This document shows positions 389 to 30,419 of a DNA stretch of 64,000 nt, piece by piece. The notes below the pieces were generated by a model, which worked only from the letters and a program-made list of their open reading frames with translations, ran no database searches and was not told where the DNA came from. Made by a program: the position numbers and the translations under genes. The first letter of the stretch is position 1. Every line of letters begins with the position of its first letter. The stretch is from Escherichia coli (GTDB lineage Bacteria > Pseudomonadota > Gammaproteobacteria > Enterobacterales > Enterobacteriaceae): NCBI RefSeq assembly GCF_050320075.1, contig NZ_CP190018.1; one strand, written 5' to 3'.

Positions 389-485
389 GATGCCTGCGAC
401 AGGGCTCTCTGAATAGTTGATACACCGAAAAGGATGGAATGATGGACAACCGACCAGGGATGGTCTTTTTTACGAGAGGATGCGT

Positions 486-2048: not shown

Positions 2049-2581
2049 GTATTGTAAAAGAGGAGCACAAAGCCACGCTGCGTAAATGGCACGAAGAGTT
2101 GCAGGAAAAACGCGGCAATCGTGCCAGTCTGCGGCGTAGCACAACGGTTAATGATGTTTGTCTGTCAGAAGGGTTTCGTTCTCTGCTGATGCAGACCCAC
2201 ACTTTGTGGAAAATTGAAGCACAAGAGTGGCGTTTTACCGCACTGGCGCTGGTCGCCGCAGTTAGCGCCAATGTTAAAGCTATTGATGAACGGCAGCCTT
2301 TTGCCGCGCAGCTGGCGGCGGTAATGTCGGAGGGGCGTTTTACTCGCCTGTCGGCAGTAAAAACGCCTGATGATTTACTGCGTCAGTTACGTCGCGCGGT
2401 CAAATTATTAAATGGTTCCGTCAATCTTATCTCTTTGGCAGAAGATATTTTCCGCTGGTGCCAGGAGAGCGACGACCTGCTCAATCATCACCGCCGCCAG
2501 CAGCGGCCAACAGAATTTATCCGTATCCGCTGGGCGCTGGAATATTACCAGGCTGGCGACGCCGATAACGAACAAAATTAA
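2045..2581 (+). CDS. cse2: Cse2/CasB, Cascade small subunit
   Basis: 178 aa, ATGA overlap with cse1 stop; size and position as expected for cse2. Confidence 0.8.
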   Translation: MSIVKEEHKATLRKWHEELQEKRGNRASLRRSTTVNDVCLSEGFRSLLMQTHTLWKIEAQEWRFTALALVAAVSANVKAIDERQPFAAQLAAVMSEGRFTRLSAVKTPDDLLRQLRRAVKLLNGSVNLISLAEDIFRWCQESDDLLNHHRRQQRPTEFIRIRWALEYYQAGDADNEQN

Positions 2582-2595
2582 TAAAGGACTATCTC

Positions 2596-3651: not shown

Positions 3652-3661
3652 GGGGCGGCTA

Positions 3662-4408
3662 ATGAGCCAATATTTGATTTTTCAGCTTCATGGGCCAATG
3701 GCATCCTGGGGCGTCGATGCCCCCGGCGAAGTGCGTCATACCCATGAACTGCCTTCGCGCTCAGCATTGCTGGGGCTGCTGGCTGCCGGGGTAGGGATTC
3801 GGCGTGATGATACCGAACGATTAAACGCGTTTAACAGCCACTATTCACTGGTGGTTTGCGCCAGCCGTAACCCGCGCTGGGCACGGGATTATCACACGGT
3901 CCAGATGCCAAAAGAGGTGCGTAAAGCGCGTTATTTCAGCCGTCGCGAAGAGTTGAGCGCCCCTGATCTTCTGAGCGCGATTATCTCCCGGCGCGACTAC
4001 TACACCGATGCCTGGTGGATGGTGGCGGTGGCAACAACCCCCGATGCGCCTTACAGGCTTGAACAGTTGCAGGACGGTTTACGTCATCCGGTTTTTCCGC
4101 TTTATCTGGGGCGAAAAAGTCATCCGCTGGCGTTACCACTTGCGCCGTTACTGCTCGAAGGCAACGCGTCTGATGTCTTACGTAACGCATACCAACAGTA
4201 TCAGGATAGTTTCCGCGAACTGAAAGTCTCACTCCCGAAACTTCAGGATGAATGCTGGTGGGAAGGGGAACACGACGGCCTGGTCGCGAGCAAAATATTA
4301 CGTCGCCGGGATGTTCCTTTAAATCGTCAGCAGTGGCTGTTTGGGGAACGCACCATCAATCAGGGGCCGTGGCTCAGCAAGGAGGAACCATGTACCTCTC
4401 AAGAATAA
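3662..4408 (+). CDS. cas5: Cas5/CasD
   Basis: 248 aa; N-terminus MSQYLIFQLHGPMASWG resembles the CasD N-terminus (MRSYLILRLAGPMQAWG in K-12 as I recall). Confidence 0.85.
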   Translation: MSQYLIFQLHGPMASWGVDAPGEVRHTHELPSRSALLGLLAAGVGIRRDDTERLNAFNSHYSLVVCASRNPRWARDYHTVQMPKEVRKARYFSRREELSAPDLLSAIISRRDYYTDAWWMVAVATTPDAPYRLEQLQDGLRHPVFPLYLGRKSHPLALPLAPLLLEGNASDVLRNAYQQYQDSFRELKVSLPKLQDECWWEGEHDGLVASKILRRRDVPLNRQQWLFGERTINQGPWLSKEEPCTSQE

Positions 4409-5036
4409 CCTTACATACCGGCCAGCTTTCGCCTGCGCAGTTGCTGCATCTGGTGGATCGCGGTGAATATGTAATGCATCAGTGGCTGTGGGATCTTTTT
4501 CCTGGCGGCAAAGAAAGGCAATTTCTTTATCGTCGGGAAGAACTCCAGGGGGCGTTTCGCTTTTTTGTCCTGTCGCAGGAACGCCCGGCGGAAAGTGATA
4601 TTTTCACCATCGAATGCCGACCATTTGCGCCAGAGTTGCGTACCGGACAATCCCTTTGTTTCAACCTGCGGGCGAATCCAACAATTTGTAAAGCGGGCAA
4701 ACGCCACGACTTGCTGATGGAGGCGAAACGGCAGGTGAGGGGGCAGGTGGAAGGAAGTGATGTCTGGTTGCATCAACAACAGGCGGCGCTGGACTGGCTG
4801 GCAGCGCAGGGGGAAAGAAGCGGTTTTACACTACTGGATACCTCGGTCGATGCCTACCGACAACAGCAACTGCGGCGGGAAAACTCCCGGCAACTGATCC
4901 AGTTCAGTAGCGTGGATTATACGGGGATGCTTACGGTCACCGATCCTGGGTTATTTCTGCAACGTCTGAGCCAGGGGTATGGCAAAAGCCGCGCGTTCGG
5001 CTGTGGTCTGATGCTGATCAAACCCGGAGCAGAGGC

Positions 5037-5040
<4 letters not shown>
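4390..5040 (+). CDS. cas6e: Cas6e/CasE, crRNA endoribonuclease
   Basis: 216 aa from ATG 4390 (MYLSRITL..., cf. K-12 CasE MYLSKV...); GGAGGAACC RBS; overlaps cas5 3' end by 19 nt. ORF-track start 4252 rejected as extension. Confidence 0.85.
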
Positions 5041-6250
<1,210 letters not shown>

Positions 6251-6346
6251 GTTATCTGTTCTTTAAAAATAAGGAAATGTTTTAATTTAGTTGGTAGATT
6301 GTTGATGCGGAATAAATTTGTTTAAAAACAGTTATGTATGCTTAGT
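6251..6346 (+). promoter_or_regulatory. CRISPR leader (AT-rich, between cas2 stop and first repeat)
   Basis: 96-bp AT-rich segment immediately upstream of repeat 1 on the sense side; leader position next to cas2 as in E. coli CRISPR-I. Confidence 0.7.
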
Positions 6347-6985
6347 GTGTTCCCCGCGTCAGCGGGGATAAACCGACAATCAGATCACGATCGATGCCTC
6401 GCGTGAGGTGTTCCCCGCGTCAGCGGGGATAAACCGATTTTCGCAGCGGGTAACCGCGCCCGGCGATCGTGTTCCCCGCGTCAGCGGGGATAAACCGTTT
6501 ATGTGGAGTATCAGTGCCTGGGTGGAAAGGTGTTCCCCGCGTCAGCGGGGATAAACCGTGGGGCTGAGCATGGCTAAACAACCGAGGCGCGTGTTCCCCG
6601 CGTCAGCGGGGATAAACCGGTCAACTGGCACCACAGGATGATGGCGGCGAAGTGTTCCCCGCGCCAGCGGGGATAAACCGCAGGTCGACCGACTGGAGGC
6701 GGAGATTGTCGGGTGTTCCCCGCGCCAGCGGGGATAAACCGTGTTGTTTTTCTGCCGGATTAACGCGGTGCGAGTGTTCCCCGCGCCAGCGGGGATAAAC
6801 CGTTGTCGGGCTTGTTCGGCGCGGGTTGTTAACTGTGTTCCCCGCGCCAGCGGGGATAAACCGCCAGCGAAGGACTTGCTCGTGTGGTTAAAGCCGTGTT
6901 CCCCGCGTCAGCGGGGATAAACCGGACGCACTGGATGCGATGATGGACATCACTTGGAGTTCCCCGCCCCTGCGGTAGAACTCCC
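6347..6985 (+). CRISPR. Type I-E CRISPR array: 10 full 29-bp repeats, 10 spacers of 32 bp, plus a degenerate terminal repeat
   Basis: Repeat GTGTTCCCCGCG(T/C)CAGCGGGGATAAACCG at 6347, 6408, 6469, 6530, 6591, 6652, 6713, 6774, 6835, 6896 (period 61 bp); terminal degenerate repeat GAGTTCCCCGCCCCTGCGGTAGAACTCCC at 6957-6985. Sense strand is + (hairpin then AUAAACCG 5' handle). Confidence 0.97.
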
Positions 6986-15870: not shown

Positions 15871-17010
15871 ATGAGCGCGGGAAGCCCAAAATTCACCGTT
15901 CGCCGCATTGCGGCTTTGTCACTGGTTTCGCTATGGCTGGCAGGCTGTTCTGACACTTCAAATCCACCGGCACCGGTCAGCTCCGTTAATGGCAATGCGC
16001 CTGCAAATACCAATTCTGGTATGTTGATTACGCCGCCGCCGAAAATGGGAACGACGTCTACAGCGCAGCAACCGCAAATTCAGCCGGTACAGCAGCCACA
16101 AATTCAGGCTACTCAACAACCGCAAATCCAGCCAGTACAGCCAGTAGCTCAGCAGCCGGTACAGATGGAAAACGGACGCATCGTCTACAACCGTCAGTAT
16201 GGGAACATTCCGAAAGGCAGTTATAGCGGCAGTACCTATACCGTGAAAAAAGGCGACACACTTTTCTATATCGCCTGGATTACTGGCAACGATTTCCGTG
16301 ACCTTGCTCAGCGCAACAATATTCAGGCACCATACGCGCTGAACGTCGGTCAGACCTTACAGGTGGGTAATGCTTCCGGTACGCCAATCACTGGCGGAAA
16401 TGCCATTACCCAGGCCGATGCAGCAGAGCAAGGAGTTGTGATCAAGCCTGCACAAAATTCCACCGTTGCTGTTGCTTCGCAACCGACAATTACGTATTCT
16501 GAGTCTTCGGGTGAACAGAGTGCTAACAAAATGTTGCCGAACAACAAGCCAACTGCGACCACGGTCACAGCGCCTGTAACGGTACCAACAGCAAGCACAA
16601 CCGAGCCGACTGTCAGCAGTACATCAACCAGTACGCCTATCTCCACCTGGCGCTGGCCGACTGAGGGCAAAGTGATCGAAACCTTTGGCGCTTCTGAGGG
16701 GGGCAACAAGGGGATTGATATCGCGGGCAGCAAAGGACAGGCAATTATCGCGACCGCAGATGGCCGCGTTGTTTATGCCGGTAACGCGCTGCGCGGCTAC
16801 GGTAATCTGATTATCATCAAACATAATGATGATTACCTGAGTGCCTACGCCCATAACGACACAATGCTGGTCCGGGAACAACAAGAAGTGAAGGCGGGGC
16901 AAAAAATAGCAACCATGGGTAGCACCGGAACCAGTTCAACACGCTTGCATTTTGAAATTCGTTACAAGGGGAAATCCGTAAACCCGCTGCGTTATTTGCC
17001 GCAGCGATAA
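15871..17010 (+). CDS. nlpD: Murein hydrolase activator lipoprotein NlpD (LysM + M23 peptidase domain)
   Basis: 379 aa, lipobox LAGC, Q/P-rich linker, LysM and degenerate M23 domain. Confidence 0.95.
16066..16160 (+). repeat. In-frame imperfect 24-bp tandem repeat inside nlpD (encodes QQPQIQPV-like units)
   Basis: Three consecutive 24-bp units starting 16066, 16090, 16114 plus a partial unit; read directly from DNA and translation. Confidence 0.6.
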
Positions 17011-17072
17011 ATCGGCGGAACCAGGCTTTTGCTTGAATGTTCCGTCAAGGGATCACGGGTAGGAGCCACCTT
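16500..17072 (+). promoter_or_regulatory. rpoS main promoter and long 5' UTR embedded in 3' part of nlpD (approximate)
   Basis: Established knowledge for E. coli: rpoS is transcribed from a promoter inside nlpD giving a ~570-nt leader targeted by DsrA/RprA/ArcZ. Coordinates are approximate; not mapped motif by motif. Confidence 0.5.
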
Positions 17073-18065
17073 ATGAGTCAGAATACGCTGAAAGTTCATG
17101 ATTTAAATGAAGATGCGGAATTTGATGAGAACGGAGTTGAGGTTTTTGACGAAAAGGCCTTAGTAGAAGAGGAACCCAGTGATAACGATTTGGCCGAAGA
17201 GGAACTGTTATCGCAGGGAGCCACACAGCGTGTGTTGGACGCGACTCAGCTTTACCTTGGTGAGATTGGTTATTCACCACTGTTAACGGCCGAAGAAGAA
17301 GTTTATTTTGCGCGTCGCGCACTGCGTGGAGATGTTGCCTCCCGCCGCCGGATGATCGAGAGTAACTTGCGTCTGGTGGTAAAAATTGCCCGCCGTTATG
17401 GCAATCGTGGTCTGGCGTTGCTGGACCTGATCGAAGAGGGCAACCTGGGGCTGATCCGCGCGGTAGAGAAGTTTGACCCGGAACGTGGTTTCCGCTTCTC
17501 AACATACGCAACCTGGTGGATTCGCCAGACGATCGAACGGGCGATTATGAACCAAACCCGTACTATTCGTTTGCCGATTCACATCGTAAAGGAGCTGAAC
17601 GTTTACCTGCGAACCGCACGCGAGTTGTCCCATAAACTGGACCACGAACCAAGTGCGGAAGAGATCGCAGAGCAACTGGATAAGCCAGTTGATGACGTCA
17701 GCCGTATGCTTCGTCTTAACGAGCGCATTACCTCGGTAGACACCCCGCTGGGTGGTGATTCCGAAAAAGCGTTGCTGGACATCCTGGCCGATGAAAAAGA
17801 GAACGGTCCGGAAGATACCACGCAAGATGACGATATGAAGCAGAGCATCGTCAAATGGCTGTTCGAGCTGAACGCCAAACAGCGTGAAGTACTGGCACGT
17901 CGATTCGGTTTGCTGGGGTACGAAGCGGCAACACTGGAAGATGTAGGTCGTGAAATTGGCCTCACCCGTGAACGTGTTCGCCAGATTCAGGTTGAAGGCC
18001 TGCGCCGTTTGCGCGAAATCCTGCAAACGCAGGGGCTGAATATCGAAGCGCTGTTCCGCGAGTAA
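17073..18065 (+). CDS. rpoS: RNA polymerase sigma factor RpoS (sigma-38), intact
   Basis: 330 aa from ATG 17073, [25 protein letters not shown]...; codon 33 is GAG (Glu), no amber. Confidence 0.97.
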
Positions 18066-18083
18066 GTAAGCATCTGTCAGAAA

Positions 18084-18116
18084 GGCCAGTCTCAAGCGAG
18101 GCTGGCCTTTTTTCTT
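18084..18116 (+). terminator. Rho-independent terminator downstream of rpoS
   Basis: 10-bp stem GGCCAGTCTC/GAGGCTGGCC with loop AAGC, followed by TTTTTT. Confidence 0.75.
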
Positions 18117-18185
18117 TTGTTTGGGAAGCATGTGTTTTTGTGGGCTGGATAAGCCGCGATAGCGTCGCATCCGGCAATTTGCACC

Positions 18186-18593
18186 CTATGTGTTCATCAT
18201 CTTGCGCACCAACTGCATAAACAGCTCCTGCTCTTCTGCACTCAAACGCCCCAAAAATTCCTCATCCACGCTGTCACCAATGGGGATCGCCGCAGCAAGT
18301 ACCTTTTCTCCTTCGGCAGTCAGCCAGACAAAGCGTCGCCGCTTGTCAGCGGCGTCATGTTCACGTCTGACTAAGCCACGATTTTCCATTCTTGCCAACA
18401 TTTCTGCCAGCGTTGCTTTGGTGCTGACTGCTGCTTCTATCAGTGCCACCTGTTCGATACCAGGCTTATCAGCAATGGCGCGCATCACCGCGTACTGTGG
18501 TTTGGTGAGGTCAGGTAACTCGTGCTGCCAGCGAGCCGTGTGCTGCTGAAAAAGCTGTCGTAACTGATGGAACGCTTTATTTCGTAACGCCAT
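18186..18593 (-). CDS. hosA: MarR/SlyA-family transcriptional regulator (HosA-like)
   Basis: 135 aa from ATG 18593 (GGAG RBS 5 nt upstream); winged-helix MarR pattern; divergent from the decarboxylase genes. Symbol from recollection of the rpoS-mutS islet in pathogenic E. coli. Confidence 0.75.
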   Translation of the reverse strand: MALRNKAFHQLRQLFQQHTARWQHELPDLTKPQYAVMRAIADKPGIEQVALIEAAVSTKATLAEMLARMENRGLVRREHDAADKRRRFVWLTAEGEKVLAAAIPIGDSVDEEFLGRLSAEEQELFMQLVRKMMNT

Positions 18594-18739
18594 GTAAACT
18601 CCGGGCAAACTATCTGCCGCTATCATAGCGGTTTTTCAGTGACGAAGAAGATGTTGTTACTTTTCAGTGCTTGCCGCGATGAAAACAGAGGCGTATTTTA
18701 ATAATAACGTTCGTATACGAACAATTAAGAGAATAAACA

Positions 18740-19333
18740 ATGAGACTGATCGTCGGGATGACAGGGGCCACCGGAGCGCCTCTTGGTGTGGCATTACTGC
18801 AAGCGCTGCGGGAGATGCCGAATGTCGAGACTCATCTGGTGATGTCGAAGTGGGCGAAAACCACCATTGAACTGGAAACGCCTTACAACGCCCGCGATGT
18901 TGCTGCCCTCGCAGACTTCTGCCATAACCCGGCGGATCAGGCCGCAACCATCTCCTCAGGTTCCTTTCGTACCGACGGCATGATCGTTATTCCGTGCAGT
19001 ATGAAAACGCTCGCCGGTATCCGTGCCGGTTACGCCGATGGCCTGGTAGGGCGCGCGGCGGACGTCGTGCTCAAAGAAGGCCGCAAACTAGTGCTGGTGC
19101 CGCGTGAAATGCCGCTTAGCACCATCCATCTCGAAAATATGCTCGCACTTTCACGCATGGGCGTGGCGATGGTGCCGCCGATGCCTGCCTTTTATAACCA
19201 TCCCGAAACGGTAGATGACATTGTCCACCACGTGGTAGCCCGCGTGCTGGATCAATTTGGCCTCGAACATCCTCACGCCAGGCGCTGGCAAGGATTGCCG
19301 CAGGCCCGGAATTTTTCTCAGGAGAATGAATAA
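18740..19333 (+). CDS. ecdB: UbiX-like flavin prenyltransferase (decarboxylase subunit B, Pad1-like)
   Basis: 197 aa, MRLIVGMTGATGAPLG flavoprotein N-terminus typical of UbiX/Pad1. Confidence 0.9.
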   Translation: MRLIVGMTGATGAPLGVALLQALREMPNVETHLVMSKWAKTTIELETPYNARDVAALADFCHNPADQAATISSGSFRTDGMIVIPCSMKTLAGIRAGYADGLVGRAADVVLKEGRKLVLVPREMPLSTIHLENMLALSRMGVAMVPPMPAFYNHPETVDDIVHHVVARVLDQFGLEHPHARRWQGLPQARNFSQENE

Positions 19334-20760
19334 TGGCATTTGATGATTTACGCAGCTTTTTACAGGCGCTTGATGACCACGGCCAGTTACTGAAAATCAG
19401 CGAAGAGGTGAACGCGGAACCGGATCTGGCAGCCGCTGCCAACGCCACCGGACGTATCGGCGATGTTGCACCGGCGCTGTGGTTTGACAATATTCGCGGC
19501 TTTATCGATGCCCGCGTGGCAATGAACACCATCGGTTCCTGGCAGAACCACGCGATTTCCCTCGGCCTGCCGCCAAACACCCCGGTTAAAAAACAGATTG
19601 ATGAGTTTATCCGCCGCTGGGATAACTTCCCCATTGCCCCGGAGCGCCGCGCCAATCCAGCCTGGGCGCAGAACACCGTCGATGGCGACGAGATCAACCT
19701 GTTCGATATTCTGCCTCTGTTTCGTTTAAACGACGGTGATGGCGGTTTCTATCTCGACAAAGCGTGCGTGGTTTCCCGCGATCCGCTTGATCCGGATAAC
19801 TTCGGCAAGCAGAACGTCGGCATCTACCGTATGGAAGTGAAGGGTAAGCGTAAGCTCGGTCTGCAACCGGTGCCGATGCACGATATCGCCCTGCATCTGC
19901 ATAAAGCGGAAGAACGCGGTGAAGATCTGCCGATTGCCATCACACTCGGTAACGATCCGATCATCACCCTGATGGGGGCCACGCCGCTGAAATATGATCA
20001 GTCCGAGTACGAAATGGCAGGCGCGCTGCGTGAAAGCCCGTACCCGATCGCCACCGCCCCGCTGACTGGTTTTGATGTGCCGTGGGGTTCAGAAGTGATC
20101 CTCGAAGGGGTCATCGAAAGCCGTAAACGCGAAATCGAAGGGCCGTTTGGTGAGTTTACCGGGCACTACTCCGGCGGGCGTAACATGACCGTGGTGCGTA
20201 TCGATAAAGTCTCTTATCGCAGCAAACCCATTTTTGAATCGCTCTATCTCGGGATGCCGTGGACGGAAATCGACTACCTGATGGGGCCAGCCACCTGCGT
20301 GCCGCTGTATCAGCAACTGAAAGCCGAGTTCCCGGAAGTGCAGGCGGTAAATGCCATGTACACCCACGGCCTGCTGGCGATTATCTCCACCAAAAAACGC
20401 TACGGTGGCTTTGCCCGCGCGGTGGGCCTGCGTGCGATGACCACGCCACACGGTCTGGGCTACGTGAAGATGGTGATTATGGTCGATGAAGACGTTGATC
20501 CGTTCAACCTGCCGCAGGTGATGTGGGCGCTCTCTTCGAAAGTGAACCCGGCAGGGGATTTGGTGCAGTTGCCGAATATGTCCGTGCTGGAACTCGACCC
20601 CGGCTCAAGCCCGGCCGGTATCACCGACAAGCTGATTATCGACGCCACCACGCCTGTCGCCCCGGACAACCGTGGTCACTACAGCCAGCCGGTGGTGGAT
20701 TTACCGGAAACCAAAGCCTGGGCTGAAAAACTGACCGCTATGCTGGCCGCACGTAAATAA
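19333..20760 (+). CDS. ecdC: UbiD-family (prFMN-dependent) aromatic acid decarboxylase subunit C
   Basis: 475 aa, UbiD-family length and motifs; start overlaps ecdB stop. Confidence 0.9.
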   Translation: MAFDDLRSFLQALDDHGQLLKISEEVNAEPDLAAAANATGRIGDVAPALWFDNIRGFIDARVAMNTIGSWQNHAISLGLPPNTPVKKQIDEFIRRWDNFPIAPERRANPAWAQNTVDGDEINLFDILPLFRLNDGDGGFYLDKACVVSRDPLDPDNFGKQNVGIYRMEVKGKRKLGLQPVPMHDIALHLHKAEERGEDLPIAITLGNDPIITLMGATPLKYDQSEYEMAGALRESPYPIATAPLTGFDVPWGSEVILEGVIESRKREIEGPFGEFTGHYSGGRNMTVVRIDKVSYRSKPIFESLYLGMPWTEIDYLMGPATCVPLYQQLKAEFPEVQAVNAMYTHGLLAIISTKKRYGGFARAVGLRAMTTPHGLGYVKMVIMVDEDVDPFNLPQVMWALSSKVNPAGDLVQLPNMSVLELDPGSSPAGITDKLIIDATTPVAPDNRGHYSQPVVDLPETKAWAEKLTAMLAARK

Positions 20761-20770
20761 GGAGAACAAG

Positions 20771-21007
20771 ATGATTTGTCCACGTTGTGCTGATGAACAG
20801 ATTGAAGTGATGGCGAAATCGCCGGTAAAAGATGTCTGGACGGTCTACCAGTGCCAGCATTGCCTCTATACCTGGCGCGATACCGAACCGCTACGCCGCA
20901 CCAGCCGCGAACATTATCCCGAAGCGTTCCGCATGACACAGAAAGATATTGATGACGCGCCGATGGTGCCGAGCATCCCGCCGCTGCTGGCGGAAGGTAA
21001 GCGCTAA
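20771..21007 (+). CDS. ecdD: Decarboxylase small subunit D (zinc-ribbon, CxxC...CxxC)
   Basis: 78 aa, MICPRCADEQ...YQCQHCLYTW, typical small subunit of BsdBCD/EcdBCD-type decarboxylases. Confidence 0.85.
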   Translation: MICPRCADEQIEVMAKSPVKDVWTVYQCQHCLYTWRDTEPLRRTSREHYPEAFRMTQKDIDDAPMVPSIPPLLAEGKR

Positions 21008-21010
21008 ATA

Positions 21011-21041
21011 AAAGGTCCGATGCCCATCGGACCTTTTTATT
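21011..21041. terminator. Bidirectional terminator between convergent ecdD and ygbN
   Basis: Stem GGTCCGATG/CATCGGACC flanked by an A-run and TTTTT. Confidence 0.7.
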
Positions 21042-21045
21042 AAGG

Positions 21046-22410
21046 TCAAATTACCGCCCATACGCACCAGGTAATTAAGAATCCGGTAAAACCGAGAATG
21101 GTCGTTAACACTGTCCAGGTTTTCAGACCGTCTGCTACCGATAACCCCAGATATTTGGTCACAATCCAGAACCCTGAGTCATTAATATGTGACGCGCCAA
21201 GCCCACCAAAGCAGGCTGCCAGCGTCACCAATACGCACTGAATCGGATTCAATCCCATCACCGCTTCTGAGAGTAACCCGCCGGTTGTCAGGATTGCTAC
21301 GGTTGCTGACCCCTGCGATGCACGCAGCGCCAGTGAAATAATAAATGCGGCTGGTAACAGAGGCAGGTCAATCATTTGTAGCATGTTGGCAAGGGCTTTG
21401 CCGACGCCCGATTCCACCAGCACTTTGCCAAATACCCCTCCAGCACCAGTAACCAAAATCACTACCGCCGCGGTGGGAAGGGCTGAGCCCATAATGTCGC
21501 TGGTGTGTTGTAAGCTCCAGCCGCGACGTAAAGCCAATAACCAGAATGCCAGCACCAGCGCAATCATTAGAGCTACCATTGGTGAGCCGATCAGCTGTAG
21601 CGTACCAAGCAGGGGATGCGAAGGCGGCATCAGTGTTGCGGAAACCGTACCCGCCATGATAATCGCGATAGGAATAACAATTAGCGAGGTGACCAGCGCG
21701 ACGCCCGGTGGATTTATTTTATCGCTTAATTTTGTCGCGCCTTCCTCACTGGCCGGAGCCAGTTGCATCTGTTCCAGTACTTCCACCGACATCGCATATT
21801 GGCGCTTATTGATTATTTTCGCTGCAAAGTAGCCAACAATCCCTACGGGAATAGAAATCGCAATACCGATGATGGTTAGCCAGCCGATGTCTGCGTGGAG
21901 TAACCCCGCTGCGGCGACAGGGCCTGGATGCGGCGGTACCGCCACATGAACAGTTAGCATGATTCCAGCGACAGGCAGGCCAAATTTGAGTGGCGATATT
22001 TTGGCAACCTTGGCAAAACCGTAAATGATTGGCGCAAGAATAATAAAGCCGACATCAAAGAAGACGGGAATACCGAGGAAGAACGCTGCCAGAGTCAGCG
22101 CAGCGATAGTTCGTTTGTCACCTAACTTGCGACTGAAATAATTAGCCAGTGACTCTGCACCACCAGAGTGTTCGATCATACGCCCCAGCATAGCGCCCAG
22201 ACCAATAATAATAGTGACGGAACCAAGCACACCGCCCATCCCGGCGATCATCACTTTACCCACTTCGCCCGCCGGTATACCCGCCGCAAGTGCGACTAAC
22301 AGGCTGACGAGGAGCAGAGCAACGAATGGTTGTACCTTTGCCTTGATGACCAGCAGCAACAGCATGATTACGCCAGTTAACGCAATGCATAACAATGTAA
22401 TTGTGGACAT
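21046..22410 (-). CDS. ygbN: GntP-family permease YgbN
   Basis: 454 aa polytopic membrane protein; E. coli YgbN. Confidence 0.93.
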   Translation of the reverse strand: MSTITLLCIALTGVIMLLLLVIKAKVQPFVALLLVSLLVALAAGIPAGEVGKVMIAGMGGVLGSVTIIIGLGAMLGRMIEHSGGAESLANYFSRKLGDKRTIAALTLAAFFLGIPVFFDVGFIILAPIIYGFAKVAKISPLKFGLPVAGIMLTVHVAVPPHPGPVAAAGLLHADIGWLTIIGIAISIPVGIVGYFAAKIINKRQYAMSVEVLEQMQLAPASEEGATKLSDKINPPGVALVTSLIVIPIAIIMAGTVSATLMPPSHPLLGTLQLIGSPMVALMIALVLAFWLLALRRGWSLQHTSDIMGSALPTAAVVILVTGAGGVFGKVLVESGVGKALANMLQMIDLPLLPAAFIISLALRASQGSATVAILTTGGLLSEAVMGLNPIQCVLVTLAACFGGLGASHINDSGFWIVTKYLGLSVADGLKTWTVLTTILGFTGFLITWCVWAVI

Positions 22411-22498
22411 GGGAAACCCTGTCTGAAAGTTATAGTTAACCTACCCCATCCGTAGATGGGGGGATGTATGGGTACTTTGTAATTAGGGATTTAACGAA

Positions 22499-23275
22499 TT
22501 AGCGCCAGGCGTCAAACCAGCCAAGCCCTTCTTCGGTGAGGCCACGAGGTTTATATTCACAACCGATCCAGCCCTGATATCCCACCTCATCGAACAGGCG
22601 GAACAGCCACGGATAGTTGATTTCTCCATCGTCCGGTTCATGTCGATCAGGTAGTCCGGCAATTTGTACGTGCGCATATTTCCCGGCGTAGTCGCGGATT
22701 AAATGCGTCAGGTTGCCATCTACTTTTTGCGCATGAAAAGTATCTAGTTGAATAAACACGTTATCTCGTGCAACTTCTTCAACAATAGCCAGTGCCTGAT
22801 ACTGGCTGGAGAAGAGATAATGAGGCTTAACGCCGGGGCTGAGTGCTTCAACTAATATTCGCTTGCCGTGTGGCGCAAAGCGGTCGGCAGCGTAGCGGAG
22901 ATTATCGATAAATACTGCCCTGTACCGTTCAGCATCTTCGCCAGCGGGCACGACGCCTGCCATCACATGGACTTGTTCACAATTGAGCGCCAATGCATAT
23001 TCCAGTGCCAGGTCGATGTCTGCGTGTGCTTCGTGCTCACGTCCGGGAAGGGCGGATAATCCCCATTCCCCCGCATTAATATCTCCGGGAGCGGTATTGA
23101 ACAGCGCCAGTGTCAGATGGTTTTGCTCCAGTTGCTTTTGGATTTGCAGGGTGGAGTAGTCATAGGGAAACAGAAATTCCACAGCATCGAACCCGGCTTT
23201 TCGCGCTGCGGCGAAGCGTTCAATAAAAGGCACTTCGGTGAACATCATGGATAAATTAGCTGCAAAACGAGGCAT
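22499..23275 (-). CDS. ygbM: Hydroxypyruvate-isomerase-family protein YgbM (2-oxo-tetronate isomerase, OtnI)
   Basis: 258 aa, TIM-barrel xylose-isomerase-like; E. coli YgbM. Confidence 0.93.
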
Positions 23276-23279
23276 TGCA

Positions 23280-23918
23280 TTAACTCCTTAATTCCGCAAT
23301 TTCACCTGCGGTCAGATAACGGATCGGGCGGTCACCGAGAATAAAAATCAGCTTTGCCGTTTCCTCCAGCTCTTCCATATTGTTGGCGGCTTCTTGCAGG
23401 CTTTCACCGCAAACCACTGGGCCATGATTTGCCAGTAAAAAAGCCTGATTGTCTGCTGCCAGTTCCGCCAGATCCTGTGCGATGCGTTTATCGCCCGGTC
23501 GGTAATAAGGCACCAGCGGGACATTTCCCATCCGCATCACCACGTATGGTGTGAACGGACGAATAACGTTGCTGCTGTCCAGCCCTTGCAGGCAGGAAAG
23601 CGCCGTCGACCATGTGCTGTGCAAATGCACCACCGCTTTACAGCGCGGATTGTTGCGATACAGCGCCAGATGAAAGAGCACCTCTTTCGAGGGTTTGTCA
23701 CCACTTAACCATTCGCCATCCGCGGCGACTTTGGAAAGCCGCTGCGGATCGAGATTGCCCAGGCATGAACCTGTCGGTGTCGCCAGTAAATTCCCGTCAG
23801 GTAAAAGCAGCGACAGATTGCCAGCCGAACCGGTTGCATAGCCGCGCTGAAAGAATGAACTGGCAATCCGCGTCATCTCCTCTCGCAAAGACTGCTCTAC
23901 TTTTGCGAAATCGCTCAT
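23280..23918 (-). CDS. ygbL: Class II aldolase/adducin-family protein YgbL (OtnC)
   Basis: 212 aa; E. coli YgbL. Confidence 0.93.
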
Positions 23919-25177
23919 GATAAAAACTCTCTTTGGGCTCGTGAAAAAAAGGCTTCATCACCGAAGTTGCCAGATTTAAGGGCGAGTGAGACAGGTTTAT
24001 CCAGTGCGTTTACCCACGGCACGCCGGGAGAAATGGTTGGGCCAATATGAAACCCTTTTATTCCCAGGCTCTGTGTGACTACGCCGGAGGTCTCACCGCC
24101 TGCGACAATAAAGCGTGTCACGCCTTCCGCTGCTAACCGCGCCGCTAGTTGAGAAAACAGTGTTTCTACTGCCTGACTGGCTTTTTGTGCACCGTATTGC
24201 TGTTGAATTGCTGCCAATGCGTCAGTGCTGGCGGTGGCAAAAACCAGTGGAGCAAGTACACTTTCCTGGCCCAGAACCCACTCTGCCAGTTCGTGTGCAT
24301 AAGCGGCCAGAGTTTCAATTGAGAGGCAGCGTGCCACATCAACTTCACGGGCTGGTGCAATTTGACGGTAATGTGCTACCTGGCGGTTGGTCATTTGAGA
24401 GCATGAACCGGAGAGCACTACGCCGCGCCCAGCGAGCGGATGCCCTGCTTTGCGAGCCTGGTTACCGTTTTCTTGCGCCCACTGCCGGGCAAGGCCAATC
24501 GCCAGACCAGAACCGCCCGTTACCAGTGGGGTATCGCGCAAGGCTTCTCCCTGAATTTCCAGATGGTGTTCGGTCAGCGCATCAAGCACCGCGTAGCGGT
24601 AGCCCTCTTGCTGTAAGCGAGCCAGCTCTTGACGAACGGCATCCACACCTTGTTCGAAAACATGTGCCGAAACGACGCCGCAGCGCCCTGTGGATTGCGC
24701 TTCAACCAGACGGGGAAGATAGCTGTCGGTCATGGGATTTACCGGGTGATGGCGCATCCCGGATTCGGCCAGCAGTTGATTCATTACGAACAAATACCCC
24801 TGATAAACCGTACGTCCGTTGACCGGCAGGGCCGGAGAGAAGACCGTAAACGGCGTGTCGAGAGCATCCATTAATGCATCGGTAACCGGGCCGATATTAC
24901 CTTTCGCCGAACTGTCGAAAGTAGAGCAGTATTTGAAATAGATCTGTTTGCAACCTTGCTGTTGCAACCAGCTCAGTGCCGCCAGCGATTGCTGTGTGGC
25001 TTCAACCACCGGACAGGAACGCGTTTTCAGGCTGATCACCAGTGCGTCGATTGCTTCCGGCATTTTACCTGTTGGAACACCGTTAATTTGTACCGTTGGT
25101 AGACCGTTTTCCACCAGAAAACTGGCGATATCCGTCGCGCCGGTAAAATCATCGGCGATAACGCCAATCTTGATCAT
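23915..25177 (-). CDS. ygbK: Four-carbon acid sugar kinase YgbK (OtnK)
   Basis: 420 aa; E. coli YgbK. Confidence 0.9.
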   Translation of the reverse strand: MIKIGVIADDFTGATDIASFLVENGLPTVQINGVPTGKMPEAIDALVISLKTRSCPVVEATQQSLAALSWLQQQGCKQIYFKYCSTFDSSAKGNIGPVTDALMDALDTPFTVFSPALPVNGRTVYQGYLFVMNQLLAESGMRHHPVNPMTDSYLPRLVEAQSTGRCGVVSAHVFEQGVDAVRQELARLQQEGYRYAVLDALTEHHLEIQGEALRDTPLVTGGSGLAIGLARQWAQENGNQARKAGHPLAGRGVVLSGSCSQMTNRQVAHYRQIAPAREVDVARCLSIETLAAYAHELAEWVLGQESVLAPLVFATASTDALAAIQQQYGAQKASQAVETLFSQLAARLAAEGVTRFIVAGGETSGVVTQSLGIKGFHIGPTISPGVPWVNALDKPVSLALKSGNFGDEAFFSRAQREFLS

Positions 25178-26082
25178 GATTTCGCTCCCGGTAGAGTGAT
25201 GCCAGAGAAAATCTTGATAACTGCGCTATCGTCTTCTTTCCCGTAACCCGCGTTACTGGCGCTGGTGAACATATTCAATGCTGTTGAGGCCAATGGCAGC
25301 GGGAAGTGCAGGGCTTTGGCTGTATCGGCAACCAGACCAAGATCCTTAACAAAAATATCGACGGCTGAATGCGGGGTGTAATCGCCATCCACCACATGAC
25401 GCATCCGGTTTTCGAACATCCAGGAATTTCCGGCGGCATTGGTCACGACGTCATACATCACATCCAGCGGGATCCCCGCACGGGCTGCAAGTGCCATCGC
25501 TTCGGCTCCGGCAGCAATATGTACGCCCGCTAACAACTGGTGAATAATTTTTACGGTCGAACCTAGTCCCGGTTCTGCACCTATGCGATAAACTTTTCCG
25601 GCAACGGCTTCCAGCACGGGTGCCAGTCGTTCAAAGGCAATATCGCTACCGGAGGCCATGACAGTCATTTCACCGTTAGCGGCTTTTACTGCACCACCAG
25701 AAACTGGCGCATCCAGCATTTCCAGATCGAATCCAGCCAGAGCGGTAGCAATTTCTTGCGCATCAGCACTAGCGATAGTGGAAGAAACCATTACTGCCGT
25801 ACCGGGTTTCAGATGTTGTGCAACGCCTGTTTCACCAAACAGCACCTGTTTAACCTGGGCCGCATTGACCACCAGCACCAGCAGAGCGTCCAGTTTTTCG
25901 GCAAACGTCGCGGCGTTATCAGAAACCCCGCAAGCACCTGCCTCTTTCAACGTAGCGCAGGCATTGCTGTTCAGGTCTGCGCCCCAGGTAGAAAGACCTG
26001 CGCGGACACATGACAGTGCTGCTCCCATTCCCATTGACCCTAAGCCAACGATACCGACATGAAACTCAGATCCCGTTTTCAT
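25174..26082 (-). CDS. ygbJ: NAD-dependent dehydrogenase YgbJ (L-threonate dehydrogenase, LtnD)
   Basis: 302 aa, Rossmann GLGSMGMG; E. coli YgbJ. Confidence 0.93.
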   Translation of the reverse strand: MKTGSEFHVGIVGLGSMGMGAALSCVRAGLSTWGADLNSNACATLKEAGACGVSDNAATFAEKLDALLVLVVNAAQVKQVLFGETGVAQHLKPGTAVMVSSTIASADAQEIATALAGFDLEMLDAPVSGGAVKAANGEMTVMASGSDIAFERLAPVLEAVAGKVYRIGAEPGLGSTVKIIHQLLAGVHIAAGAEAMALAARAGIPLDVMYDVVTNAAGNSWMFENRMRHVVDGDYTPHSAVDIFVKDLGLVADTAKALHFPLPLASTALNMFTSASNAGYGKEDDSAVIKIFSGITLPGAKS

Positions 26083-26277
26083 CTGCTCTCCTTGTTAATT
26101 TAAGTGATATTTTGTTTGATATTGTGAATATAGGCGCTGGAAGATAACGATATGGTGAGCTGATTCACAAAAATTAACATTGTGTGTTATTTTATGTGAA
26201 CTAAGCGTTAGTTGCGCCGCGCACGTTTCGCAGGCAAATAGCGTAGAATGTCAGCAGGACAAAGGAAGGAGCAAAAG

Positions 26278-27045
26278 TTGATACCCGTAGAGCGTCGCCA
26301 AATCATCCTTGAGATGGTAGCTGAAAAAGGCATTGTCAGTATTGCTGAACTAACGGACAGAATGAATGTGTCACATATGACCATTCGTCGGGATTTACAA
26401 AAACTGGAGCAGCAGGGAGCCGTTGTGCTGGTGTCCGGAGGCGTCCAGTCTCCGGGACGCGTGGCGCATGAACCTTCTCATCAGGTAAAAACTGCGCTGG
26501 CAATGACGCAAAAAGCGGCTATTGGCAAGCTGGCGGCAAGTCTTGTTCAGCCGGGAAGTTGTATCTATCTGGATGCGGGAACGACCACGCTAGCGATAGC
26601 ACAGCATCTGATTCACATGGAGTCACTGACTGTGGTCACAAACGATTTCGTTATTGCGGACTACTTGCTCGACAACAGTAATTGCACAATTATTCACACT
26701 GGCGGTGCAGTGTGTCGGGAAAACCGTTCCTGTGTCGGGGAAGCCGCTGCGACCATGCTGCGCAGCCTGATGATTGATCAGGCTTTTATTTCTGCATCGT
26801 CATGGAGTGTGCGGGGGATTTCTACGCCAGCGGAAGATAAAGTCACGGTGAAACGGGCGATTGCCAGTGCCAGCCGCCAGCGAGTTTTGGTCTGTGATGC
26901 GACGAAATATGGTCAGGTGGCGACATGGCTGGCGTTACCATTAAGCGAGTTTGATCAGATTATTACAGACGACGGTTTGCCGGAGAGTGCCAGTCGCGCG
27001 CTGGCGAAGCAGGATCTCTCTTTGCTGGTAGCGAAAAATGAATAA
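26278..27045 (+). CDS. ygbI: DeoR-family transcriptional regulator YgbI
   Basis: Probable TTG start at 26278 with AAGGAAGGAG RBS 6 nt upstream (255 aa); the ATG at 26248 has no RBS. Confidence 0.88.
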   Translation: MIPVERRQIILEMVAEKGIVSIAELTDRMNVSHMTIRRDLQKLEQQGAVVLVSGGVQSPGRVAHEPSHQVKTALAMTQKAAIGKLAASLVQPGSCIYLDAGTTTLAIAQHLIHMESLTVVTNDFVIADYLLDNSNCTIIHTGGAVCRENRSCVGEAAATMLRSLMIDQAFISASSWSVRGISTPAEDKVTVKRAIASASRQRVLVCDATKYGQVATWLALPLSEFDQIITDDGLPESASRALAKQDLSLLVAKNE

Positions 27046-27068
27046 TGGCCTGCAATAACACCGGGTTA

Positions 27069-27094
27069 CTCATGCTTCACAGAAGAAGCATGAG
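27069..27094. terminator. Hairpin between convergent ygbI and pphB
   Basis: Perfect 10-bp stem CTCATGCTTC/GAAGCATGAG with loop ACAGAA. Confidence 0.6.
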
Positions 27095-27095
27095 A

Positions 27096-27752
27096 CTACT
27101 TTATTTTATAAAATGACAGCCGCCCGCTTTTCGGCGATCCGGTATCAATATAAATCTGGTTTGCGAACGTCTGAATGTTATCAAACATCATATGTCCAAA
27201 TATAAAATAATCAGCGCCGTTTATTTGTTGTAACTCGCCATTAAGCGATTTCTGCACACGATCAACAGGCCAGAGTAGTTCTCTCTCCGCTATTTCTTTG
27301 CCAAAGAGATATTCATTCCCCGGATAATCTGCATGTGCGATGACATATTTTATTATGTCGTTAGTGATTTCAATAATATGTGGAAGGCGATGAAATTTCA
27401 GCAACAGATTTATTGCTTCTTGTTGTTCCGTCTCATTTAATTCAAAGAACCAGTCGCCGCCGCTGGCAAGCCACATATTTCCATCGCCAGTTTCGAATGC
27501 ATCAAGCGCCATCGCTTCATGGTTGCCTTTAACCGATGTAAACCAGGGCTGGTTTAACAGGCGTAGTACGTTAAGACTCTCCGGCCCACGATCAATATTA
27601 TCGCCGACAGAAATAAGTAAGTCGGTTTCAGGGAAAAAAGAGAGTTGATGTAAGCGGGATTGTAATAATTGATAGTCACCATGAATATCACCAACGGCCC
27701 ATATATAACGATAGTGATGGGCATTAATTTTTTGATAGCGTGTAGATGGCAT
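27096..27752 (-). CDS. pphB: Serine/threonine protein phosphatase 2
   Basis: 218 aa, metallophosphatase motifs GDIHG, GDNIDRG, GNHE. Confidence 0.93.
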   Translation of the reverse strand: MPSTRYQKINAHHYRYIWAVGDIHGDYQLLQSRLHQLSFFPETDLLISVGDNIDRGPESLNVLRLLNQPWFTSVKGNHEAMALDAFETGDGNMWLASGGDWFFELNETEQQEAINLLLKFHRLPHIIEITNDIIKYVIAHADYPGNEYLFGKEIAERELLWPVDRVQKSLNGELQQINGADYFIFGHMMFDNIQTFANQIYIDTGSPKSGRLSFYKIK

Positions 27753-27857
27753 GGTTTTACCCTGTAAAATAAGATTTCCTATTATACAGGGTGTTTTTAT
27801 TTGATTCGTCTGTTGTCGTTAATATTCCCGATAGCAAAAGACTATCGGGAATTGTTA

Positions 27858-30419
27858 TTACACCAGACTCTTCAAGCGATAAATCCACTCCAGCGCCTGA
27901 CGCGGAGTCAGTGAATCCGGGTCGAGATTTTCCAGTGCTTCGACCGCAGGCGACGTTTCTTCTGGCACTGACAGCAAAGACATTTGCGTACCATCCACTT
28001 GCGTAGCGGCGGCGTTCGGCGAAATGCTTTCCAACTCACGCAGTTTTTGCCGTGCGCGCTTAATAACCTCTTTTGGCACGCCGGCCAGAGCTGCAACCGC
28101 CAGGCCGTAGCTTTTGCTCGCCGCGCCATCCTGCACGCTGTGCATAAAGGCAATGGTGTCGCCGTGCTCCAGCGCATCGAGATGCACGTTGGCGACGCCT
28201 TCCATTTTCTCCGGTAACTGGGTCAGCTCGAAATAGTGGGTGGCAAACAGTGTCAACGCTTTAATCTTATTCGCCAGATTTTCCGCGCACGCCCACGCCA
28301 GCGACAGACCATCGTAAGTGGACGTCCCGCGCCCAATCTCATCCATCAGCACCAGACTGTACTCGGTGGCGTTATGTAAAATATTGGCGGTTTCGGTCAT
28401 TTCCACCATAAAGGTTGAACGCCCGGATGCCAGATCATCCGCTGCCCCTACGCGGGTAAAGATGCGATCGATAGGTCCAATCTCGACTTTTTGTGCCGGT
28501 ACATAGCTGCCGATGTAGGCCATCAGCGCAATCAGTGCGGTCTGGCGCATATAGGTACTTTTACCGCCCATATTCGGACCGGTAATGATCAACATGCGAC
28601 GCTGCGGCGACAGGTTCAGCGGGTTGGCGATAAACGGCTCATTCAGCACCTGTTCAACCACCGGATGGCGGCCTTCGGTGATGCGAATACCCGGTTTATC
28701 AATAAAGGTCGGGCAGGTGTAGTTCAGCGTATAGGCCCGTTCTGCCAGGTTCACCAGCACGTCGAGTTCCGCCAGCGCGCTCGCGCTCTGTTGCAACGCT
28801 TCCAGATGCGGCAACAGCAGGTCGAACAACTCTTCATAAAGCTGTTTTTCCAGTGCCAGTGCTTTGCCTTTTGAAGTGAGAACTTTGTCTTCGTACTCTT
28901 TTAGCTCTGGAATAATGTAGCGTTCGGCGTTTTTCAGCGTCTGGCGGCGCATGTAGTTAATCGGTGCCAGATGGCTTTGTCCACGGCTGATCTGAATGTA
29001 ATAACCATGCACCGCGTTAAATCCGACTTTCAGCGTGTCCAGGCCGGTACGTTCACGCTCGCGGACTTCCAGACGCTCCAGATAATCGGTCGCGCCGTCA
29101 GCCAGCGCGCGCCACTCATCCAGCTCTTCGTTATAGCCCGATGCGATAACACCACCGTCGCGCACCAGTACCGGCGGTGTGTCGATAATGGCCCGCTCCA
29201 GCAGATCGCGCAGTTCGGCAAACTCACCCATCTTCTCACGCAGCGCCTGTACCGGAGCGCTATCGACATTTTCTAACTGCGCACGCAGCTCCGGCAGTTG
29301 CTGGAAAGCGTGACGCATACGGGCCAGATCGCGTGGGCGAGCAGTTCGTAAAGCCAGACGTGCCAGAATACGTTCCAGGTCGCCGACCTGACGCAGCACC
29401 GGCTGTAGCTCGGCGGTGAAATCCTGCAATGCGCCAATAGTTTGCTGGCGCTCAAGCAACACGCGGGTATCGCGCACTGGCATATGCAGCCAGCGTTTCA
29501 GCATACGACTACCCATTGGCGTTACAGTGCAGTCGAGCACTGAAGCCAGCGTGTTTTCCGCACCGCCCGCCAGGTTCTGAGTAATTTCCAGGTTACGACG
29601 TGTCGCGGCATCCATAATGATGCTGTCCTGCTCACGTTCCATGGTGATAGAACGAATATGCGGCAGGGTCGTACGTTGGGTATCTTTCGCATACTGCAAC
29701 AGACAACCGGCAGCACAAAGTCCGCGCGGCGCGTTCTCGACGCCAAAACCGACCAGATCGCGGGTGCCAAATTGCAGATTCAACTGCTGGCGCGCGGTGT
29801 CGATTTCAAACTCCCACAGCGGGCGACGGCGCAGGCCGCGACGGCCTTCAATTAACGACATTTCAGCAAAATCTTCTGCATACAGCAGTTCCGCCGGATT
29901 AGTGCGTTGCAGTTCTGCCGCCATCGTTTCGCGGTCAGCCGGTTCGCTCAGGCGAAAACGACCGGAACTGATATCCAGCGTCGCGTAGCCGAAACCTTTG
30001 CTGTCCTGCCAGATAGCCGCCAGCAGGTTGTCCTGACGCTCCTGCAACAGGGCTTCATCGCTGATGGTGCCTGGCGTAACGATACGCACAACTTTGCGCT
30101 CAACCGGACCTTTGCTGGTCGCCGGATCGCCAATTTGTTCGCAGATGGCAACGGACTCGCCCTGATTCACCAGTTTGGCGAGGTAGTTTTCCACCGCATG
30201 GTAGGGGATCCCCGCCATCGGGATCGGCTCTCCCGCGGAAGCACCGCGTTTGGTCAGTGAAATATCCAGCAGCTGCGAGGCGCGTTTCGCGTCGTCATAA
30301 AACAGTTCGTAAAAGTCACCCATCCGATAGAACAGCAGGATCTCGGGATGCTGGGCTTTCAGCTTGAGATACTGCTGCATCATGGGCGTATGGGCATCGA
30401 AATTTTCTATTGCACTCAT
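27858..30419 (-). CDS. mutS: DNA mismatch repair protein MutS
   Basis: 853 aa, Walker [10 protein letters not shown]; E. coli MutS. Confidence 0.98.

Follow-up and report, generated by a model that had tools for sequence, protein, structure and literature searches.

Genes and boundaries of the locus

Within the window, a 64,000-nt stretch of Escherichia coli contig NZ_CP190018.1, positions 18186–21007 harbor a MarR-family regulator gene on the minus strand and an operon of three genes on the plus strand, all four of which are intact. The block is flanked by the terminator hairpin of rpoS (18079–18112) and by a hairpin shared with ygbN (21010–21038), and it is followed by a complete ygbN-ygbM-otnC-otnK-ltnD-ygbI-pphB-mutS series (21046–30419). 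The closest genome, that of CFSAN061763, displays a BLAST identity of 99.6% across 26.7 kb of the window. The locus is hosA-vdcBCD, which has already been characterised and is also known as slyA/hosA-pad1-yclC-yclD, ecdBCD or kpdBCD. Its features are as follows:

18079–18112, plus strand: intrinsic terminator of rpoS, a hairpin with a U-tract (terminator scan; fold of −28 kcal/mol, z −3.8; comparison with the MG1655 junction)
18143–18175, minus strand: REP-like extragenic palindrome lying in the gap that separates the rpoS terminator from the hosA stop codon (GCCGGATGCGACGC motif; sub-threshold Rfam naRNA4 match)
18186–18593, minus strand: hosA, a 4-hydroxybenzoate-sensing winged-helix repressor of the MarR family, 135 aa (Pfam MarR; PDB 8AGA; annotated start; translation)
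18622–18627, minus strand: putative −10 hexamer of hosA, TATGAT (alignment A1)
18671–18699, plus strand: putative vdcB promoter, with −35 TTGCCG (18671–18676), a 17-nt spacer and −10 TATTTT (18694–18699) (alignment A1)
18709–18722, no strand assigned: HosA operator, a perfect 14-bp palindrome, GTTCGTATACGAAC (exact match; published probes; conservation across loci)
18740–19333, plus strand: vdcB (ecdB / pad1 / kpdB), a UbiX-type flavin prenyltransferase making prFMN (NCBIfam VdcB; Pfam Flavoprotein; PDB 1SBZ)
19333–20760, plus strand: vdcC (ecdC / yclC / kpdC), the catalytic subunit, a prFMN-dependent decarboxylase of the UbiD family (NCBIfam VdcC; UbiD Pfam domains; PDB 7AE4)
20771–21007, plus strand: vdcD (ecdD / yclD / kpdD), a zinc-ribbon activator subunit, 78 aa (NCBIfam VdcD; PDB 7AE4 chain a; cysteines)
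21010–21038, no strand assigned: bidirectional terminator hairpin common to vdcD and the convergent ygbN (sequence; inverted repeat I2; fold; junction comparison)

The Rfam scan of positions 16800–22600 yielded nothing but the REP-related match at 18143–18175, which scored 29 bits, the gathering score of the REP-derived naRNA4 family being 59.5; thus, no known sRNA or riboswitch is present in the block.

The operon is compact, with vdcB and vdcC overlapping in ATGA and a gap of 10 nt between vdcC and vdcD. Pfam and NCBIfam assignments agree with the gene set recognised in an earlier note on this DNA, i.e., a MarR-type regulator with UbiX-like, UbiD-like and zinc-ribbon proteins. VdcB scores 312.9 bits with NCBIfam NF041206 (cut-off 290), contains the Pfam Flavoprotein domain, and is identical to Pad1 of O157:H7 (PDB 1SBZ) at 193 of 197 positions (98%). 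The earlier note had made its reading depend on the UbiD membership of the large subunit, and this membership holds: VdcC scores 788.3 bits with NF041204 (cut-off 650), and all three UbiD Pfam domains (UbiD_N, UbiD and UbiD_C) were found in it. Its closest solved relative is ShVdcC (7AE4; E-value, 3e-159). The motifs N161-V-G-I-Y-R166 and E269-G-P-F-G-E274 are present in VdcC, and, from what is known of UbiD and Fdc1, we take these motifs to hold the Glu-Arg-Glu (ERE) triad. This triad is key for UbiD catalysis, and the activity of VdcC depends on VdcD (PMC8379154). VdcD itself scores 121 bits with NF041205 (cut-off 30) and matches chain a of PDB 7AE4; its Cys3, Cys6, Cys28 and Cys31, arranged in two CXXC knuckles, correspond to the zinc ligands of ShVdcD, while R36 and E39 are conserved as well.

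The VdcCD/BsdBCD systems of Sedimentibacter hydroxybenzoicus and Bacillus subtilis (PDB 7AE4/7AE5/7AE7) likewise combine a UbiD-type C subunit with a zinc-ribbon D subunit (Cys3/6/28/31), obtain prFMN from a UbiX-type B protein, and use 4-hydroxybenzoate and vanillate, as does the E. coli system. The sequences have nevertheless clearly diverged, with many substitutions in the alignment of C and an E-value of only 3e-11 for the match of D. The housekeeping UbiX and UbiD of K-12, which serve ubiquinone biosynthesis, belong to the same two families as VdcB and VdcC and share the prFMN chemistry. However, unlike VdcC, K-12 UbiD works on a prenylated substrate without the help of a D subunit, and its gene shares an operon neither with that of UbiX nor with that of a MarR regulator; on the 4-hydroxy-3-polyprenylbenzoate decarboxylase equivalog, VdcC scores 172 bits against a cut-off of 788. 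The substrate of the E. coli enzyme had been described in the earlier note as poorly defined, a statement that is outdated, as for EcdCD of O157:H7 a table in a review gives 4-hydroxybenzoate (the best) and vanillate as substrates, along with the reverse carboxylation (PMC6644310), and 4-hydroxybenzoate is the reported effector of HosA.

The HosA regulator and its operator

The regulator is identical at 135 of 135 positions to the crystallised HosA of EPEC (PDB 8AGA) and scores 45.5 bits with Pfam MarR. Its start codon is the ATG at 18593, as annotated in an identical genome and as crystallised, while the upstream ATG at 18626 is not used. Hence, the divergent intergenic region spans 18594–18739; of the limits 18627–18739 proposed previously, the end at 18739 holds and the beginning does not.

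Papers on O157:H7 and ExPEC have historically called the gene slyA, and the earlier note, too, speaks of a SlyA/MarR regulator. On that basis, the regulator might be a SlyA orthologue controlling virulence or haemolysin genes, with the decarboxylase genes as mere neighbors. Weak MarR-family similarity to SlyA structures does exist, and an effect of HosA on FliC and motility in EPEC has been reported. However, HosA reaches only 29.5 bits on the SlyA equivalog (NF002926), for which the cut-off is 120, and a search of solved structures gave E-values of about 1e-7 for SlyA structures as compared with 1e-84 for HosA. Moreover, published binding and 4-hydroxybenzoate release assays fit HosA instead. 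In 75 of 75 related loci, down to 50% HosA identity, hosA stands divergent to vdc(B)CD and the operator precedes the operon, which marks HosA as the dedicated regulator of the operon. Orthology to SlyA is thus extremely improbable, and the name is best regarded as a historical misnomer for a protein with 100% identity to HosA. PcaV is a MarR regulator of protocatechuate catabolism, differing from HosA in its ligand and in the pathway that it regulates. Its structure (PDB 4FHT, deposited as PcaV transcriptional regulator) is the top-scoring one after HosA itself (E-value, 1.4e-16), the likeness being distant.

The HosA operator, GTTCGTATACGAAC, lies in the divergent intergenic region, 18 nt upstream of the vdcB ATG. 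It was missed by the inverted-repeat finder at default settings and was found by an exact-pattern search. The same operator core, together with flanking sequence, is contained in the published HosA-binding oligonucleotides. With up to two mismatches allowed, the box is kept in all of the 75 related loci, while chance matches would be expected at about 5e-4 per locus according to our own combinatorial estimate. In alignment A1, which covers 12 genera, the operator half-sites are invariant. In the same alignment, the putative hosA −10 hexamer sits in TATCATAGC, of which T-A-T and A-T-A are invariant and the central C is either C or G, and the TTG and TA of the putative vdcB promoter are invariant too. 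A consensus promoter scan of 17900–21300 at a threshold of 9/12 found no promoter; the proposed vdcB promoter fits the consensus at 8/12 and, being below the threshold, was not reported by the scan. We infer the promoter hexamers from conservation between genera, and likewise infer where the operator lies with respect to the transcription start; the vdcB start is predicted near 18705–18707, immediately before the operator. In the literature, the HosA site is placed downstream of the transcription start.

The HosA binding assay that had been suggested for the intergenic region, an EMSA, has an equivalent in print. HosA of UMN026 binds 4-hydroxybenzoate with a KD of 4.7 uM, and its release from DNA has been followed by EMSA, BLI and ITC. 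According to the published account, HosA represses both the hydroxyarylic acid decarboxylase operon and hosA itself, and 4-hydroxybenzoate relieves this repression. Work on EPEC links HosA to FliC and flagellar motility; thus, the HosA regulon may extend beyond vdcBCD.

Distribution and ancestry of the block

Comparison of the junctions confirmed that K-12 lacks the block, as the earlier note had it. Strain MG1655 is without positions 18112–21006 and has 8 nt (CTGTGCAC) between the two matching flanks. On the left, identity to K-12 stops at 18111, within the U-tract of the rpoS terminator; on the right, it resumes from 21007, at the vdcD/ygbN terminator. The U-tract is consequently clipped in K-12 (TTTTTTCTTTTGTTT in the window versus TTTTCTGTG in K-12), and the rpoS terminator is left 8 nt from that of ygbN. 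The block is present in 2380 of 5426 complete E. coli genomes and absent from about 56%; the vdcD-ygbN junction is also kept in 1601 of the 5426.

The association with rpoS–mutS polymorphism drawn in the earlier note is borne out by a documented 2.9-kb segment of this polymorphism (Herbelin 2000, as described in other papers) and by the vdcD-ygbN arrangement published as the EPEC-type "pattern IV". The co-occurrence of the block with ygbI-N, which that note had also pointed out, agrees with the full ygbN-to-mutS series of the window. In O157:H7 (EcdBCD, i.e., Pad1/YclC/YclD, with HosA), EPEC E2348/69 and UPEC UMN026, the locus is the same as the one described here, with equal operator sequence and rpoS-adjacent position. 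The flanks are the sole difference: O157:H7 ("pattern I") is without ygbI-N, whereas the window keeps this cluster, as in pattern IV. Because ygbI-N was lost in O157:H7, vdcD is located near mutS there.

In the earlier note, the block was regarded as an islet, implying that it was horizontally acquired as a pathogen-associated genomic element inserted beside rpoS. Its absence from K-12 and from more than half of the complete genomes would fit such an origin, as would its G+C content (0.55–0.58), which is slightly above that of the flanks (about 0.50–0.53). In addition, a 2024 preprint claims that HosA came from Shigella dysenteriae; however, Shigella lies within E. coli, so a similarity of 97.6% to a Shigella protein is uninformative on transfer. 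Synteny largely refutes acquisition. The rpoS-hosA-vdcBCD layout is the same in 46 of 80 other enterobacterial species and inverted in 5 of the 80, Salmonella among these. The holders of the nlpD-rpoS / hosA-vdcBCD / mutS layout include Citrobacter, Klebsiella, Enterobacter, Kluyvera, Kosakonia, Atlantibacter, Franconibacter and a cryptic Escherichia clade. Searches at the block for a tRNA and for direct repeats at its boundaries or flanks found none, and no integrase or transposase is present among the annotated genes of the interval. The K-12 junction, which cuts the U-tract of the rpoS terminator and contains an 8-nt filler, is a deletion-type scar. Acquisition is therefore very improbable. 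Given the layout conserved across Enterobacteriaceae and the lack of mobility signs, hosA-vdcBCD is ancestral in the rpoS–mutS interval of this family, and K-12-type strains lost 18112–21006 by simple deletion. In none of the 80 other enterobacterial species was ygbN found near the hosA-vdcBCD locus; the ygbI-N cluster is a lineage-specific addition.

Proposed function and implications

Taken together, it is very likely that this is an inducible phenolic-acid decarboxylation locus under HosA, ancestral, deleted in K-12-type strains, and present here in pattern IV. The present analysis itself shows what the genes are, the sequence of the operator and how well it is conserved, the deletion junctions, the distribution and the synteny, while repression, induction by 4-hydroxybenzoate, enzymatic activity and what the D subunit does come from papers on related strains or systems. 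The locus would form a substrate-inducible system that decarboxylates phenolic acids by a non-oxidative route. Dimers of HosA would occupy the palindrome at 18709–18722, just downstream of the putative vdcB promoter, and block transcription, until the binding of 4-hydroxybenzoate takes HosA off the DNA. VdcB, a UbiX paralogue, would then prenylate FMN to prFMN, with which VdcC would turn 4-hydroxybenzoate into phenol and vanillate into guaiacol, both reversibly, and the zinc-ribbon VdcD would keep VdcC in an active conformation.

The locus, the regulator with its ligand, the enzymology and the population polymorphism have already been published, as have the structures of HosA, of the near-identical O157:H7 VdcB (Pad1) and of a homologous VdcCD complex, and HosA is in use as a 4-hydroxybenzoate biosensor. 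The gain is a clean annotation (hosA and not slyA, the right start codon, operator coordinates) and a corrected evolutionary reading, in which the vdc block is ancestral, K-12 has deleted it, and ygbI-N was added. Since the K-12 deletion clips the U-tract and brings the two terminators together, formation of the rpoS 3'-end or read-through could change. It is conceivable, if unlikely, that strains with and without the block would in this way come to differ in RpoS level, adding to the variation known between lineages, and that some gut E. coli might, through their vdcBCD genes, supply phenol made from 4-hydroxybenzoate.

Gene content and protein identities

The interval between the rpoS and ygbN terminators was described in the earlier note as carrying a regulator gene and a three-gene operon, and the ORF list together with the terminator hairpins shows this description to be accurate. 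The rpoS gene ends at 18065, with hosA and vdcBCD (also named ecdBCD, kpdBCD or pad1-yclC-yclD) between it and ygbN:

18079–18112, hairpin of the rpoS terminator (terminator scan and folding)
18186–18626, minus strand, regulator gene as a mechanical ORF (ORF list)
18740–19333, plus strand, first operon gene, vdcB (ORF list)
19333–20760, plus strand, second operon gene, vdcC (ORF list)
20771–21007, plus strand, third operon gene, vdcD (ORF list)
21010–21038, second hairpin, between vdcD and ygbN (sequence, inverted repeat, folding)
21046–22410, ygbN, convergent with vdcBCD

The true start of hosA is the ATG at 18593, which yields a protein of 135 aa; a genome that does not differ from the window anywhere in the finding has this start in its annotation, and the crystallised protein begins there too. 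Therefore, the divergent intergenic region is 18594–18739, and, while the placement of the regulator gene holds, the upstream start at 18626 and the intergenic region 18627–18739 proposed earlier do not. The mechanical ORF of rpoS (17037–18065) is overextended at its 5' end as well, the annotated start being 17073 (330 aa). A REP-like palindromic element (GCCGGATGCGACGC...TTATCCAGCC) is found at 18143–18175 on the minus strand, between the rpoS terminator and the hosA stop codon, and its match to Rfam naRNA4 is sub-threshold (29 bits versus a gathering score of 59.5).

Pfam analysis assigned the regulator to MarR, VdcB to Flavoprotein, and VdcC to UbiD_N, UbiD and UbiD_C. VdcC carries the motifs NVGIYR166 and E269-GPFG-E274, which we take to be the UbiD Glu-Arg-Glu triad. 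All three operon products exceeded the curated NCBIfam cut-offs for "non-oxidative hydroxyarylic acid decarboxylase" subunits, with 312.9 against 290 for B, 788.3 against 650 for C and 121.2 against 30 for D. The regulator reached no equivalog cut-off among the NCBIfam models, and SlyA was rejected (score, 29.5; SlyA cut-off, 120). It has 135/135 residues in common with PDB 8AGA, "Transcriptional regulator HosA", which is joined by six other entries; judged by sequence, it is HosA, not SlyA. The B subunit is identical at 193/197 positions to Pad1 of O157:H7 (PDB 1SBZ, "probable aromatic acid decarboxylase"). The C and D subunits match the two chains of the Sedimentibacter hydroxybenzoicus VdcCD/ShdCD complex (7AE4). 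Cys3, 6, 28 and 31, described as the Zn ligands of ShVdcD (PMC8379154), are present in VdcD. Thus, Pfam, NCBIfam and solved structures bear out the MarR, UbiX and UbiD families named in the earlier note, but not the SlyA label.

The statement that the substrate remains poorly defined is out of date, because a review table (PMC6644310) lists 4-hydroxybenzoate (4-HBA; the best substrate) and vanillate for EcdCD of E. coli O157:H7, for which it also records demonstrated reverse carboxylation. VdcC is inactive without VdcD, a zinc-ribbon allosteric activator touching the loops with the catalytic triad, and the prFMN cofactor, oxygen-sensitive in the VdcCD enzyme, is supplied by a UbiX-type enzyme (PMC8379154). 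In several related loci from other species (L032, L050, L051, L061, L062, L064, L071, L072, L075, L076, L081 and L082), vdcB is missing and hosA is followed directly by vdcC-vdcD; there, the housekeeping UbiX presumably provides prFMN.

HosA operator and candidate promoters

A perfect 14-bp palindrome, GTTCGTATACGAAC, is located at 18709–18722, 18 nt upstream of the vdcB ATG. This site is present in the oligonucleotides of published HosA binding assays (two show its core with an additional T, a third shows it exactly), and the BLI probe also contains the flanking sequence of the window. HosA is reported to bind to the 14-bp site, with 4-HBA causing release (KD, 4.7 µM). According to a paper citing Roy & Ranjan 2016, HosA represses its own gene and the hydroxyarylic acid decarboxylase operon, the operon is induced by 4-HBA, and the HosA site is downstream of where transcription begins.

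An operator-like box with at most two mismatches was found in 75/75 related loci with a usable hosA–vdc intergenic region, usually about 30 nt upstream of the first vdc gene; chance matches are estimated at ~5 × 10−4 per locus, although the loci are not independent, being related to each other. In an alignment of these regions from 12 genera, neither half-site (GTTCG, CGAAC) varies, and the spacer between them has largely diverged. A second HosA-like box (e.g., GATCGTGTACGAAC; columns ~143–160) precedes the main operator by ~57 bp in Pseudocitrobacter, Enterobacter, Kluyvera and K. oxytoca (L007, L016, L018, L023), and its E. coli counterpart (18645–18665) is degenerate.

In the same alignment, TTG at 18671–18673 and TA at 18694–18695 are invariant. 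The putative vdcB promoter would consist of a weak −35 element (TTGCCG) and a −10 element (TATTTT) spaced 17 nt apart, and transcription would then begin immediately upstream of the operator. TATCATAGC at 18619–18627, invariant save for the central C/G position, may, on the minus strand, represent the −10 hexamer (TATGAT) of hosA. Neither proposed promoter was called by a consensus promoter scan.

Ancestry of the block

One genome per species was scanned for VdcC relatives, the best 80 loci were kept, and the neighbour genes of the window were sought in each. The layout of the window (nlpD-rpoS, convergent hosA, then vdcBCD) recurs in 46/80 loci, from Citrobacter, Pseudocitrobacter, Klebsiella, Enterobacter, Kluyvera, Leclercia, Lelliottia, Atlantibacter, Kosakonia, Franconibacter, Mangrovibacter, Cedecea, Pluralibacter and a cryptic Escherichia clade. 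In 5/80 loci, the block is inverted yet still adjoins rpoS; in these (L015 and L017, Salmonella enterica subspecies; L019, L046 and L048, Phytobacter), vdcD, not hosA, faces the rpoS 3' end. In more distant Enterobacterales, such as Pantoea, Rahnella and Erwinia, hosA-vdc(B)CD is located elsewhere.

A search of the window found no tRNA, the block has no detected boundary repeats, and no mobility genes are among the annotated genes of the interval. Given these results and the rpoS-side layout shared across genera, the block is ancestral to the rpoS-mutS interval rather than an acquired islet, and its absence from K-12 is a deletion. Its slightly higher G+C content does not outweigh this evidence. 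Horizontal acquisition from Shigella, claimed in a preprint, is not supported, being at odds with the 46 shared and five inverted rpoS-adjacent layouts. Since ygbN is found within the 6-kb flank in 0/80 loci, and mutS follows vdcD within 6 kb in 47/80 (often at 50–800 bp), it is the ygbI-N (threonate/tetronate) cluster that looks like a lineage-specific insertion in E. coli.

A 6-kb contig of a "Citrobacter sp." MAG (L003, DXKH01000072.1) has an O157-like layout without ygbI-N, and its HosA, VdcBCD and MutS proteins are 97–100% identical to those of the window; the contig probably belongs to E. coli, its presence in that MAG being a binning error.

Polymorphism within E. coli

K-12 lacks the block, as the earlier note had stated: identity between MG1655 and the window runs to 18111 and restarts at 21007, an 8-nt filler, CTGTGCAC, being all that is left before the ygbN terminator; thus, 18112–21006 is missing. 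Comparison of window 18100–18125 with positions 1967–2059 of the MG1655 locus places the junction within the rpoS terminator's U-tract (TTTTTTCTTTTGTTT in the window versus TTTTCTGTG in K-12). The deletion shortens the U-tract and brings the rpoS terminator next to that of ygbN; speculatively, this might influence how the 3' end of rpoS is formed.

Among 5426 complete E. coli genomes, 2380 contain at least 80% of the block, 1961 match only the 35-nt ygbN-side terminator (K-12 type), and 1085 show no match, which is consistent with a B2-type junction starting inside ygbN, as seen in the junction search. The vdcC/D–ygbN junction is also contained in 1601 of the 5426. In NZ_CP032261.1 (strain AR_0067), one of the matching genomes, the match from vdcC/D to ygbN is in two pieces and the annotation beneath it includes an IS200C transposase, which is reminiscent of the IS200 element that Ewers 2014 reported as inserted between o454 and rpoS.

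The window is 99.6% identical to strain CFSAN061763 over 26.7 kb, and 100% identical over the finding. Elsewhere in the window (~1–6924), a same-strand ORF run (417–5960), probably the cas operon judged by its position, is followed by a CRISPR array (~6164–6924) adjoining iap. The array region aligns with the otherwise 99.6% identical CFSAN061763 at only 75–87%, and its spacer content therefore differs.

A 2.9-kb segment with hosA, pad1 and yclC downstream of rpoS, present in EPEC and absent from K-12, is described in a paper citing Herbelin 2000. Four o454-nlpD patterns have been published, and the arrangement of the window is pattern IV (E2348/69-type, kpdBCD and slyA with o454/ygbN). Everything of substance on hosA-vdcBCD has been published, and the locus is therefore already known. 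The original observation is confirmed and its functional interpretation is essentially right, with three changes: the regulator is to be read as HosA, the substrate is known, and the block is no acquired islet.
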